A stretch of 64,000 bases of DNA from Escherichia phage vB_EcoM_HZ_ZJUN4 (PP216085), one strand, 5' to 3'; shown: positions 11,589 through 58,310, counted from the stretch's first letter. Made by a program: numbers and translations. Notes: generated from the sequence alone by a model not told the origin.

Positions 11589-11789
11589 ATGAATCCTGAA
11601 TCTAAATTATCGCAACGAATTGCTGAAGCTCGTCGTCAGTTCTTTGAAAATATGATAGCCCAAGGTATTGATGACGAAGTTTTTCTGAACTGGTTTTGGA
11701 ATCACAAATATTCAAAATGCGCAGGAGCAATATTAATATCAGCCGCAATGATGTACGAAGGCTGGAAGGGTGCCAAACAGTTTAGCTAA
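11589..11789 (+). CDS. hypothetical protein
   Basis: Track ORF, 66 aa. Confidence 0.45.
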   Translation: MNPESKLSQRIAEARRQFFENMIAQGIDDEVFLNWFWNHKYSKCAGAILISAAMMYEGWKGAKQFS

Positions 11790-54283: not shown

Positions 54284-54468
54284 GTTCATTATGGTGGTGT
54301 TTTGTTTGGTTAATTAGTATTCCATTGATTTGTTTAGTATTTACTTTTGTGATGAGGTTATTATGAAAATTTTGAATTCTGTACTTATTGCTTGTGCATG
54401 GTGGGTTGCGCAAGTTTCAGCAGTAGTAGTTGGTATTCACATTTATTACGAATATTTTTAAAAAAGTT

Positions 54469-54498
54469 ATTTACAAGACTGTTCCTCTGTGGTATTAT
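54469..54498 (+). promoter_or_regulatory. T4-type early promoter
   Basis: ATTTACAAG...TGTGGTATTAT. Confidence 0.55.
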
Positions 54499-54526
54499 TA
54501 CCCTATCAACTACGGAGGAACAGAAA

Positions 54527-54640
54527 ATGAAAAAGATTGTTAAAGCTATATGGAATGTAGTTATAATACTAATAGTTTTGAGTATATTCCCAATCGTTTT
54601 AATGATTGATGTATTAAACGCTTACTTTGGATTTATGTGA
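54527..54640 (+). CDS. small hydrophobic peptide (37 aa)
   Basis: ATG after CGGAGGAACAGAAA; MKKIVKAIWNVVIILIVLSIFPIVLMIDVLNAYFGFM. Confidence 0.4.
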   Translation: MKKIVKAIWNVVIILIVLSIFPIVLMIDVLNAYFGFM

Positions 54641-54647
54641 GGAAAAT

Positions 54648-54845
54648 ATGAAGCGTAAACGTAGTGCTTTTACATTTATGGAATGGTTTTTCGATAATAT
54701 TTTTCCAGCTTTATTCATTTTCATGCTGATTTTTGCCTTAGGTTCAGTTGTAGTTGGAATCTATTTGATGGCAGTTGTCGGAATGGACATTCATCAAAAT
54801 GGCTTAAAATCTGTAGTTGAAACAATTTGGAATGGTGTAAAATAA
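54648..54845 (+). CDS. small membrane protein (65 aa)
   Basis: Track ORF 54627 trimmed to ATG after GAGGAAAAT. Confidence 0.45.
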   Translation: MKRKRSAFTFMEWFFDNIFPALFIFMLIFALGSVVVGIYLMAVVGMDIHQNGLKSVVETIWNGVK

Positions 54846-54960
54846 TGAATTTACTAAGCATTTGGTTTTATATTCTTATGTTTTACATTGGTGCAAATTT
54901 CCCATACTGGATGGGATGGTCAACAACTGCATTTGGATTTTATACTCCCTGAGGTGAATT

Positions 54961-55176
54961 ATGAAAATTTTTAAAGATGTAAAGGTCGGTGAAATTTTTT
55001 GCTTAGATAATGGTGATCAGTTAATTCGTATTTCACCTCTTAAGAGCACTAGCGAGAAAATGACAGTTAACGCTACTTTAGCAAATAACAGTAATGAACG
55101 TTTCTGTATTGAAAATGATACTGAAACTTATACTGTAGAAGAATTCTGGGAATTAAGTGTCGACTGCGACGATTAA
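54961..55176 (+). CDS. hypothetical protein
   Basis: 71 aa, RBS TGAGGTGAATT. Confidence 0.5.
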   Translation: MKIFKDVKVGEIFCLDNGDQLIRISPLKSTSEKMTVNATLANNSNERFCIENDTETYTVEEFWELSVDCDD

Positions 55177-55236
55177 TTTATCGGCCGTGTGTATTCATGC
55201 GGCCTTGGAGTAGAAAATAATTTAGAGGAAATTAAT

Positions 55237-55692
55237 ATGAAATACATGACTGTTACTGATCTGAATAATGCAGGCGCAACTGTTATTGGTACAATTAAGG
55301 GCGGTGAATGGGTTTTTGGAACTCCGCATAAAGACATTTTGTCTAACCCTGGATTTTACTTTTTAGTAAGCAAATTTGGTGGTCCATTTGATAGTCCATG
55401 TGTATCTGCACGATTTTATGTAGGTAATCAGCGTTCTAAACAAGGATTTAGCGCAGTTCTAAGTCATATTCGCCAGCGTCGGTCTCAGCTTGCGCGTACT
55501 ATTGCAAATAACAATGTTCCATACACGGTATTTTATCTACCTGCTTCTAAGATGAAACCTCTGACGACGGGATTTGGAAAAGGTCAGTTAGCTTTAGCGT
55601 TTACTCGTAATCATCATTCTGAGTATCAAACACTTGAAGAAATGAACCGTATGTTGGCTGATAACTTTAAATTTGTTTTGCAGGCATATTAA
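55237..55692 (+). CDS. ndd: nucleoid disruption protein Ndd
   Basis: Track ORF trimmed to 151 aa [25 protein letters not shown]...; matches recalled T4 Ndd. Confidence 0.8.
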
Positions 55693-55772
55693 TGAGTAAT
55701 TTCCATAACGAACATGTAATGCAGTTCTATCGTAACAATCTTAAAACTAAAGGCGTCTTCGGACGCCAGTGA
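55692..55772 (+). CDS. stp: Stp peptide (activator of host PrrC anticodon nuclease)
   Basis: Not in ORF track; 26 aa [26 protein letters not shown]; start overlaps ndd stop (TAATG); matches recalled T4 Stp. Confidence 0.75.
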
Positions 55773-55779
55773 GGAAAAT

Positions 55780-55935
55780 ATGAATATTGCAAAACTATTA
55801 GGAGTTATTTCATTTATTTGTTGGATAGTAGCATGTGTTTTAACTATCTGTATCGATGCTAGCAGTGTGTTTTCGCAAGCTTTAGCTCAGGGTATGTGTG
55901 CATATTTAACATTTGCGTTGTTATCTAATGATTAA
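55780..55935 (+). CDS. ac: probable Ac (acriflavine sensitivity) membrane protein
   Basis: Not in ORF track; 51 aa hydrophobic peptide between stp and 52, RBS GTGAGGAAAAT. Confidence 0.55.
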   Translation: MNIAKLLGVISFICWIVACVLTICIDASSVFSQALAQGMCAYLTFALLSND

Positions 55936-56068
55936 GAAAATCTTGGGCTACTCGGTAGCCCTTGCTGCTTTATTGGTAGCACTATATTATGGAGTAATGT
56001 TCGGATTAATTCAAGTCGTGCTTTTCATTTCTGATGTTATTATGGCACTACATTCACTAGTATGGTAA
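55928..56068 (+). CDS. small membrane peptide (46 aa)
   Basis: Not in ORF track; ATG overlaps the preceding stop. Confidence 0.3.
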   Translation: MIKKILGYSVALAALLVALYYGVMFGLIQVVLFISDVIMALHSLVW

Positions 56069-56072
56069 ATTT

Positions 56073-57401
56073 ATGCAACTGAATAATCGCGATTTAAAAA
56101 GTATCATTGATAATGAAGCATTGGCTTATGCTATGTACACGGTTGAAAATCGTGCTATTCCAAATATGATTGATGGATTTAAGCCAGTTCAACGATTTGT
56201 TATTGCTCGAGCTCTTGATTTGGCACGGGGAAATAAAGATAAGTTTCACAAACTTGCTTCTATTGCAGGTGGTGTAGCAGACCTTGGATATCATCATGGT
56301 GAAAACTCTGCGCAAGACGCGGGGGCTTTGATGGCTAATACTTGGAATAATAACTTTCCTTTGTTAGATGGTCAAGGAAACTTTGGTTCTCGTACCGTCC
56401 AAAAAGCAGCAGCAAGTCGTTATATTTTTGCTCGTGTAAGTAAAAATTTCTATAACGTATATAAAGATACTGAATATGCTCCGGTACATCAAGATAAAGA
56501 ACACATTCCTCCTGCTTTCTATCTGCCTATTATTCCTACTGTTCTTCTTAATGGTGTTTCCGGTATTGCAACTGGTTATGCAACTTACATTCTTCCTCAT
56601 AGTGTTTCTTCTGTCAAGAAAGCTGTACTACAAGCTCTTCAAGGAAAGAAAGTAACTAAACCAAAGGTAGAATTCCCAGAATTTCGCGGTGAAGTCGTTG
56701 AAATTGAAGGTCAATATGAAATTCGTGGAACGTACAAGTTTACTTCACGAACTCAAATGAATATCACTGAGATTCCGTATAAGTATGATCGCGAAACTTA
56801 TGTGAGTAAAATCTTAGACCCGCTTGAAGATAAAGGCTTCATTACGTGGGATGATGCTTGTGGTGAGCATGGTTTTGGCTTTAAAATTAAATTCCGCAAA
56901 GAATACTCTTTGAGCGATAACGAAGAAGAACGCCATGCAAAAATTATGAAAGACTTCGGGTTGATTGAGCGTCGTTCCCAGAATATTACAGTCATCAACG
57001 AGAAAGGAAAACTACAAGTTTACGATAACGTAGTTGATTTAATTAAAGACTTCGTTGAAGTTCGTAAAACTTATGTCCAAAAACGAATTGATAACAAAAT
57101 CAAAGAAACTGAATCAGCATTTCGTTTAGCCTTTGCCAAGGCACATTTCATTAAGAAAGTGATTTCAGGTGAAATTGTTGTACAAGGTAAAACTCGCAAA
57201 GAACTGACTGAAGAACTTTCTAAAATTGATATGTATTCTTCTTATGTTGATAAACTAGTTGGAATGAACATTTTTCATATGACTTCCGACGAAGCAAAGA
57301 AACTTGCTGAAGAAGCTAAAGCTAAGAAAGAAGAAAACGAATATTGGAAAACTACTGATGTAGTTACAGAATACACCAAAGATTTAGAGGAAATCAAATG
57401 A
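56073..57401 (+). CDS. 52: DNA topoisomerase II medium subunit gp52 (GyrA-like)
   Basis: 442 aa; N-terminal MQLNNRDLKSIIDNEALAYAMYTVENRAIPNMIDGFKPVQRF breakage-reunion domain. Confidence 0.92.
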   Translation: MQLNNRDLKSIIDNEALAYAMYTVENRAIPNMIDGFKPVQRFVIARALDLARGNKDKFHKLASIAGGVADLGYHHGENSAQDAGALMANTWNNNFPLLDGQGNFGSRTVQKAAASRYIFARVSKNFYNVYKDTEYAPVHQDKEHIPPAFYLPIIPTVLLNGVSGIATGYATYILPHSVSSVKKAVLQALQGKKVTKPKVEFPEFRGEVVEIEGQYEIRGTYKFTSRTQMNITEIPYKYDRETYVSKILDPLEDKGFITWDDACGEHGFGFKIKFRKEYSLSDNEEERHAKIMKDFGLIERRSQNITVINEKGKLQVYDNVVDLIKDFVEVRKTYVQKRIDNKIKETESAFRLAFAKAHFIKKVISGEIVVQGKTRKELTEELSKIDMYSSYVDKLVGMNIFHMTSDEAKKLAEEAKAKKEENEYWKTTDVVTEYTKDLEEIK

Positions 57402-57547
57402 GTCCATTCATAGGTATTACAAGCGCTGCATTAGTATCCGGTGGCATTTTACTGGCGGGTTTAGGTGTTGTTCCAGCTGTAGCAGGAGGTCTTCTTGCGT
57501 TCGGCATTCAACGTGTTATCATGACAGTTATCACAGTCATGCAGTAA
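57398..57547 (+). CDS. small glycine-rich membrane peptide (49 aa)
   Basis: Not in ORF track; ATGA overlap with gene 52 stop. Confidence 0.35.
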   Translation: MSPFIGITSAALVSGGILLAGLGVVPAVAGGLLAFGIQRVIMTVITVMQ

Positions 57548-57552
57548 TTTTA

Positions 57553-57578
57553 GGGAGAGCCTCGGCTCTCCCTTTTTT
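57553..57578 (+). terminator. intrinsic terminator
   Basis: GGGAGAGC-CTCG-GCTCTCCC hairpin followed by TTTTTT. Confidence 0.65.
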
Positions 57579-57603
57579 ATTTCAAAATTTTTTTCACAAA
57601 ACG

Positions 57604-57633
57604 GTTTACAACCAAAGCATACTGTGGTACTAT
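57604..57633 (+). promoter_or_regulatory. T4-type early promoter (copy C of repeated promoter-leader cassette) upstream of motA
   Basis: GTTTACAAC...CTGTGGTACTAT; shares 23-nt GTGGTACTATACAACTATCAACT with copies A and B. Confidence 0.6.
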
Positions 57634-57674
57634 ACAACTATCAACTACTGATACAGAATTACGGAGATTAGAAA

Positions 57675-58310
57675 ATGTCTAAAGTAACTTACATCATCAA
57701 AGCTTCTAACGATGTTCTGAATGAAAAAACTGCTGCGATTTTAATTACCATTGCTAAGAAAGATTTCATTACAGCTGCAGAAGTTCGTGAGGTGCATCTA
57801 GATTTAGGTAACGCAGTAGTTAATAGTAATATTGGGGTATTGATTAAAAAAGGCCTGGTGGAGAAATCTGGTGATGGATTAATCATTACAGGTGAAGCTC
57901 AGGATATTATTTCAAATGCAGCAACTTTATACGCACAGGAAAATGCTCCTGAACTGTTGAAAAAACGAGCAACACGTAAAGCTCGCGAGATTACTTCCGA
58001 TATGGAAGAAGATAAAGACTTCATGTTAAAACTTTTAGATGAAAATGGATTTGTTCTTAAAAAAGTTGAAACTTATCGTAGTAACTATCTCGCTATTTTA
58101 GAAAAACGCACTCACGGAATTCGCAATTTTGAAATTAACAACAATGGAAATATGCGAATTTTTGGATACAAAATGATGGAACATCATATTCAGAAATTTA
58201 CTGATATTGGAATGTCATGTAAAATCGCTAAAAACGGTAATGTGTATCTTGACATTAAACGCTCGGCAGAAAACATTGAAGCTGTAATCACCGTAGCATC
58301 TGAACTGTGA
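57675..58310 (+). CDS. motA: middle-transcription activator MotA
   Basis: 211 aa MSKVTYIIKASNDVLNEKTAAILITIAKKDFITAAEVREVH...; matches recalled T4 MotA. Confidence 0.85.
   Translation: MSKVTYIIKASNDVLNEKTAAILITIAKKDFITAAEVREVHLDLGNAVVNSNIGVLIKKGLVEKSGDGLIITGEAQDIISNAATLYAQENAPELLKKRATRKAREITSDMEEDKDFMLKLLDENGFVLKKVETYRSNYLAILEKRTHGIRNFEINNNGNMRIFGYKMMEHHIQKFTDIGMSCKIAKNGNVYLDIKRSAENIEAVITVASEL

Follow-up and report, generated by a model that had tools for sequence, protein, structure and literature searches.

Positions 55692–56068 on the plus strand of the window (the whole 64,000-nucleotide stretch of DNA analysed here) carry three small genes, stp, ac and 52.1, which lie between ndd and the topoisomerase gene 52. 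We consider it very probable (about 95%) that this region is the ndd–stp–ac–52.1–52 segment of the early/middle transcription unit of a T4-like phage (Tequatrovirus), organised gene for gene as in T4. The window is a close relative of T4, with a DNA identity of about 97–98% in this region, and the T4 RefSeq record lists ndd, stp (81 nt), ac (156 nt), 52.1 (141 nt) and gene 52 in identical order, with the 1-nt ndd/stp and 8-nt ac/52.1 overlaps of the window also present. On the upstream side the segment is bounded by ndd (55237–55692, plus strand), encoding the nucleoid disruption protein of 151 aa (Pfam PF06591, 6.4e-89; 144/151 residues identical to T4 Ndd), and on the downstream side by gene 52 (56073–57401, plus strand), encoding the 442-aa topoisomerase II medium subunit (PF00521, 8e-77; 438/442 residues identical to T4 gp52). 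A 931-bp segment matches 567 phage records, the best being phage EP01 at 98.9%, and is found at ≥90% identity in 515–567 phage records which are nearly all T4-like and come from Escherichia, Shigella, Yersinia and Salmonella. Reading of the sequence and of the ORF listing recovered all of the sequence features claimed by the initial annotation of this region where it had placed them. The gene identifications meet no contrary evidence, and the functions of Stp and Ac are predictions carried over from T4 because the sequences are identical or near-identical. For comparison we used a set of 36 IMG/VR loci gathered via Ndd (46%–95% identity to the window protein) plus T4 and two GenBank relatives.

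The first of the three genes, stp (55692–55772, plus strand), begins within the ndd stop codon, the final A of this TAA (55690–55692) doubling as the first base of the stp ATG to give a 1-base TAATG overlap, and ends with a TGA at 55770–55772. The initial annotation had proposed that this 26-codon ORF encodes Stp, and the comparison with T4 bears this out: all 26 residues and 79/81 nucleotides are identical to T4 stp (NP_049878; PF08133 Nuclease_act), the two nucleotide differences being synonymous, and the T4 gene has the same place right after ndd, the same TAATG overlap and the same 3' hairpin. The peptide matches the Pfam family PF08133 'anticodon nuclease activator' over positions 1–26 of 26 (75.3 bits against a cut-off of 25, E 2e-21) as well as phrog_6763 (4.4e-21), and is hydrophilic (GRAVY –1.03). 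Members of this family have a conserved N-proximal stretch of 18 residues, with residues 4–14 critical (PMC3014915), and in T-even-type phages their gene comes straight after ndd; here all 26 residues are those of T4 and the gene directly follows ndd.

For activation of the latent tRNA-Lys anticodon nuclease PrrC, Stp is both necessary and sufficient, although its primary activity is inhibition of the type Ic restriction enzymes EcoprrI and EcoR124I but not of type Ia enzymes, and PrrC activation is a host counter-response to Stp targeting EcoprrI, which masks PrrC (PMC3014915). The cut tRNA is repaired by T4 polynucleotide kinase and RNA ligase 1; Stp suppressor mutations cluster at residues 4–14, and deletion of the eight C-terminal stp codons leads to only a moderate loss of both Stp activities (PMC3014915). 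By extension from T4, the window protein would be a 26-residue cytoplasmic peptide that binds and inhibits type Ic restriction enzymes, and in hosts carrying the prr locus this inhibition would unmask latent PrrC, with the phage repairing the damage using Pnk and RNA ligase 1.

The second gene, ac (55780–55935, plus strand), encodes a hydrophobic membrane peptide of 51 aa, the acridine susceptibility determinant, and lies between stp and 52.1 as expected of the T4 homologue. It had been suggested from the sequence that this membrane peptide was Ac, in agreement with which 50/51 residues are identical to T4 Ac (NP_049877), the sole substitution being V46 in T4 to A46 in the window. Ac matches phrog_2501 (5.4e-25) and the Pfam profile search found no matching family; the peptide has a GRAVY of 1.41 and a 20-residue apolar run at residues 6–25, which is of membrane-spanning length. 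T4 ac (phrog_2501) also shares the 51-aa length, the Shine-Dalgarno and start string, and the 8-nt overlap with 52.1, whereas in the closest-clade IMG/VR relatives Ac is 52 aa long with one extra residue close to the C-terminus. In phage G28 (900–902 of our locus L002) the ac start codon is GTG rather than ATG, behind the same Shine-Dalgarno. Ac is a non-essential protein; T4 without Ac is acriflavine-resistant, expression of Ac in E. coli leads to higher acriflavine susceptibility, and the current proposal places Ac in the membrane, where it would interfere with AcrAB-TolC efflux (bioRxiv 10.1101/2025.06.30.662393; PMC13250531). The window Ac would likewise be a 51-residue inner-membrane peptide through which infected cells accumulate acridines, perhaps by such interference with AcrAB-TolC.

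The third gene, 52.1 (55928–56068, plus strand), encodes a hydrophobic peptide of 46 aa, and its ATG at 55928 lies 8 nt before the ac stop, with the overlap reading ATGATTAA. The initial annotation had described a 46-aa hydrophobic ORF overlapping the ac stop without naming it, and we can identify this as T4 gene 52.1 (NP_049876; PF24129; phrog_3595), which also encodes 46 aa directly upstream of gene 52 and differs by a single substitution (L10 in T4, V10 in the window; 45/46 residues identical). The match to Pfam PF24129 (DUF7396) covers positions 1–46 of 46 (79.8 bits against a cut-off of 27, 1.6e-22) and that to phrog_3595 has an E-value of 1.3e-25. The peptide has a GRAVY of 1.74 with an apolar run long enough for a membrane span. 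It should be noted that the ORF listing starts 52.1 at an upstream TTG (55913), and we have taken the ATG at 55928 as this is the conserved start in all homologues. The gene adjoins gene 52, its stop at 56068 being followed by the ATG of gene 52 at 56073, and this adjacency is also seen in T4 and in most related loci. A literature search for gp52.1 or DUF7396, in which the query was swamped by the number 52.1, found no report on function or translation. We picture gp52.1 as a 46-residue membrane peptide which would be the conserved member of a variable micro-peptide array ahead of the topoisomerase gene.

Two further features lie inside 52.1. A palindrome, GGGCTACTCGGTAGCCC, is found at its 5' end (55945–55961, plus strand) with a stem of 7 bp here compared to 6 bp in T4 (GGGCTATTCATTAGCCC), and the nucleotide difference which extends the stem accounts for the V10/L10 substitution. 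Close clades retain the palindrome core, where an A to G change produces a G.U pair, but distant 52.1 genes do not have it. A MotA-box-like putative middle promoter, TGCTTTA-N12-TATTAT, is located at 55966–55990 on the plus strand, some 80 nt upstream of gene 52; the pattern scan, which scores consensus matches, returned 11 matches in the window (eight on the plus strand) compared to 2.5 expected.

A start codon within or a few bases past the preceding stop is the usual arrangement for translational coupling. The TAATG at the ndd/stp junction, the ATGATTAA overlap between ac and 52.1, and the gap of 4 nt between 52.1 and gene 52 suggest that these genes are packed for such coupling. A strong Shine-Dalgarno is found for ac only among stp, ac, 52.1 and gene 52. 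The ac translation initiation region, GAGGAAAATATG (55771–55782, plus strand), consists of a GAGGA Shine-Dalgarno at 55771–55775, which overlaps the stp stop, and the ATG at 55780. As this 12-mer is recurrent across the window, with four exact and seven one-mismatch copies on the plus strand compared to 0.7 expected, we regard it as a generic T4-type initiation region.

Immediately upstream of this initiation region, stp codons 21–26 contain a C(UUCG)G tetraloop hairpin, GGCGTCTTCGGACGCC (55752–55767, plus strand), which is a perfect palindrome with a 6-bp stem (GGCGUC paired with GACGCC around the UUCG loop). It ends 2 nt short of the stp stop and 3 nt upstream of the ac Shine-Dalgarno, much as had been noticed earlier from the sequence when a GC hairpin was placed in front of the ribosome-binding site of the next gene. 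The predicted stability is –11.5 kcal/mol for the hairpin alone and –12.3 kcal/mol in a 66 nt context, where the z-score is only –1.8. None of the 15 stp-bearing loci has lost the stem, and the changes seen among them are UUCG to UUUG in the loop, the closing G-C to G.U, which introduces a TAA stop and shortens Stp to 25 aa, and one C-G to U-G. Compensatory double changes were not found in the stem among these 15 loci, which is near-invariant with G.U changes only, and covariation gives no positive support for the structure for this reason. An Rfam scan of 54300–57700 with E up to 1 assigned neither the hairpin nor the region to a family. Its only hits were weak sub-threshold matches, among them CrcZ/SorY ones attributable to a strong terminator-like hairpin further downstream, AGGGAGAGCCTCGGCTCTCCCT followed by a T-run (57552–57573, plus strand), which comes right after the motA.1 homologue (57398–57547).

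C(UUCG)G hairpins are strongly over-represented in the window, with 11 on the plus strand and two on the minus strand compared to 0.2 expected in shuffles. This extra-stable class was reportedly first described in T4 mRNA by Tuerk et al. in 1988. The T4 hairpins (the class is reviewed in PMC4371310) and that in stp have in common the UUCG loop, the closing C:G, a perfect GC-rich stem and over-representation on the early-transcript strand, although the T4 class is intercistronic and the stp hairpin is not, being inside the stp coding sequence and having a different stem. The other ten plus-strand copies start at 11788, 14155, 15425, 20134, 22083, 29338, 36951, 46321, 48851 and 52873; they are on the early-transcript strand with stems of 6–10 bp, often of the AAGGGC/GCCCTT type. 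At least six of the ten lie under no ATG-started ORF, and two more only under ORFs of fewer than 20 codons.

On balance we think that the hairpin has probably been selected in its own right as an RNA element, a reading we favour because of its strong conservation and because the eight C-terminal stp codons are reported to be dispensable. The hairpin could instead have no RNA function and be a by-product of coding the conserved residues GVFGR combined with the recent spread of one stp allele. This is possible but somewhat unlikely. GVFGR, encoded by the hairpin codons, is invariant in all stp copies, the whole of stp is 95–100% identical in DNA in most records, and the gene is near-identical even where Ndd is ~63% identical, a pattern more suggestive of lateral transfer than of long-term constraint; the lack of compensatory pair changes fits as well. 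Such an origin sits less comfortably with the report that the C-terminal codons encoding these residues are largely dispensable for both Stp activities (PMC3014915), with the hairpin being a C:G-closed UUCG loop on a perfect 6-bp stem and so of the class over-represented on the plus strand, and with the distribution of silent variation, as 14 of the 20 third-codon positions in stp codons 1–20 are variable whereas the four stem third positions show one change, to a G.U-compatible base, the other variable site in the hairpin being in the loop. We also compared a 36-mer made up of the hairpin, Shine-Dalgarno and ATG, which matches the window exactly in 395/533 records of the large phage collection, with a control 36-mer from the N-terminal critical coding part of stp, which does so in 22/552, but this comparison is biased as the window alleles in the control stretch are minority ones and the ac initiation region contributes 13 of the 36 test bases.

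A second alternative, which we judge decidedly unlikely, is that the hairpin is a Rho-independent terminator ending the ndd–stp transcript. The stem is stable and GC-rich, and the G28 and G2540 records label the hairpin as a 'putative transcriptional terminator, –10.30'. A consensus scan also flags it, but on the minus strand only, where the tail is TTTAGTTTTA; the sense strand continues AGUGAGGAAAAUAUG after the hairpin, without a U-tract. The next gene, ac, starts 12 nt later, which leaves no room for a promoter, and our scan found no promoter-like site between the two. An efficient terminator at this point would silence ac, yet ac expression from wild-type phage has been shown genetically. 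The sense-strand tail of the hairpin is AGUGAGGAAAAU and a U-rich tail is found on the antisense strand only, and we therefore rejected an intrinsic terminator on the sense strand, where the tail AGTGAGGAAAAT is not a U-tract and which the scan did not flag. As a selected RNA element, the hairpin would act not as a sense-strand terminator but by stabilising the mRNA or insulating its folding, which would keep the ac initiation region accessible.

The hairpin also invites comparison with the PeSL cassettes of T4-type phages (PMC2839356, PMC4122927), in which a stem-loop and an early sigma-70 promoter occupy an intergenic spacer (PMC4122927). The likeness is in having a conserved stem-loop where unrelated downstream genes swap, since 3' of the hairpin and Shine-Dalgarno we find genes of either the Ac family or phrog_9347, depending on the phage. 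However, PeSL have an early promoter and the window hairpin is without one, there being only 12 nt of spacer to the next ATG and no promoter-like site in 55767–55780, and we rejected this assignment. The suggestion that the hairpin, Shine-Dalgarno and ATG together serve as a specific recombination linker is weakened, as GAGGAAAATATG is generic and the single recombination scar examined (described below) joins elsewhere.

Small ORFs by themselves are not significant in this region, with 43 ORFs of ≥20 aa overlapping the surrounding 3 kb, and because chance alone often yields ORFs this short the case for stp, ac and 52.1 being genes rests on homology and purifying selection. The Pfam and PHROG E-values for the three peptides are of the order of 1e-21 to 1e-25, with scores well above the curated cut-offs. 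Each gene is intact in every compared sequence which carries it, and the pN/pS ratios of 0.07–0.30 indicate purifying selection: 0.15 for stp (17 sequences; 4, 3 and 16 variable sites at codon positions 1, 2 and 3), 0.07 for ac (nine sequences; 2, 2 and 7) and 0.30 for 52.1 (19 sequences; 25, 14 and 36). It is extremely improbable that at least one of the three is an untranslated chance ORF, a view to which their common size, the lack of a clear Shine-Dalgarno for stp and 52.1, and the failure of our literature search to find a Ribo-seq or proteomic report for gp52.1 (a search for T4 Ribo-seq or small-protein data likewise found nothing relevant) lend some substance, but against which stand the genetic and biochemical evidence for Stp and Ac in T4, the third-position bias of the variation seen in relatives, the start/stop overlaps which are a classic translational-coupling arrangement, and the retention in distant phages of the 52.1 length (44–46 aa) and motif YYG...VLFISDVI...SL.W at ~30–50% identity.

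Comparison of the IMG/VR loci indicates that the ndd–52 interval is a shuffled and variable array of micro-peptide genes in which 52.1 alone is near-universal. Of the 34 loci that extend to gene 52, 32 have a detected 52.1 (phrog_3595) immediately before it. Stp is confined to two clades, the closest one and another in which Ndd is ~63% identical and Stp 80–100% identical. Ac-family genes (phrog_2501) also occur in the closest clade, and several distant phages carry a diverged form with an SSV.SQ..AQ-like motif. Elsewhere the interval is filled by the hydrophobic families phrog_9347 and phrog_5941 and by an unclassified 43-aa peptide. Genes of different families upstream of 52.1 end in ...ND*, as AATGATTAA is fixed by the 52.1 start. 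A broader proposal, which we regard as speculative and quite unlikely, starts from the constant and apparently translationally coupled position of 52.1 before gene 52. In it gp52.1 would partner or modulate the phage topoisomerase at the membrane, and its variable neighbours (the Ac family, phrog_9347 and phrog_5941) would be hypervariable modulators of the host envelope or of defence comparable to Stp. A smaller version would see the stp C-terminus as a dual-use sequence in which selection really acts on the CUUCGG RNA hairpin.

In one IMG/VR locus (L010, 2660–2760) and at the equivalent position in another (L013) there are two stp–hairpin–Shine-Dalgarno modules, the second stp having no start codon. 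A GAGTAAT microhomology marks the join of this second copy with a piece of the 52.1 5' end which is 66 nt long and frameshifted. From its sequence, this junction is best read as a recombination scar fusing two micro-gene modules, with the join between 52.1 and stp and not at the hairpin.

As stp, ac and 52.1 are all in the T4 reference annotation, they are already known genes, and with two of the three having decades of genetics behind them the discovery value of the locus is low. Public annotation of T4-like phages is nonetheless uneven. We sampled 60 records evenly spaced among the 515 containing stp, 57 of which were annotated, and found a CDS for stp (other than ndd) in about 10 of these 57 (about 18%), leaving ~80% without an stp annotation. 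This agrees with the earlier remark that size-thresholded gene callers miss such genes, and in EP01 and G28, the two best-matching records inspected, none of stp, ac and 52.1 is annotated. Since automated annotation routinely drops or mislabels these genes, Stp counts will be too low in surveys of T4-like phages for anti-restriction and defence-trigger genes. We suggest that gp52.1, as a widely conserved micro-protein encoded beside a topoisomerase gene, is a reasonable target for small-protein studies.

Several individual records illustrate how genes of the segment have been labelled. Ndd is mislabelled as 'naphthalene 1,2-dioxygenase' in the T4 mutant record OL964735.1, and probably in two more records, and several RefSeq records wrongly call the 51-aa Ac a 'sugar ABC transporter permease'. 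In both OL964735.1 and NC_054928.1 (L040 and L041 in our set) stp is absent from the annotation, and in the latter 52.1 is called from an internal start to give 41 aa.

One further ORF in the window also differs from its treatment in the T4 reference. At 54651–54845 on the plus strand there is a single 65-aa ORF (MKRKRSAFTFMEWFFDNIFPALFIFMLIFALGS...WNGVK) behind GAGGAAAATATG, where a 1-nt deletion just past the start (ATGAA-CGT compared to ATGAAGCGT) is found in the T4 reference, which annotates two ORFs, ndd.3 (26 aa) and ndd.2a (40 aa). The 65-aa ORF is intact in all five of the T4-like IMG/VR loci which cover the site (L004–L007 and L028), and for this reason the ndd.3/ndd.2a pair of T4 looks like a frameshifted split of one gene.
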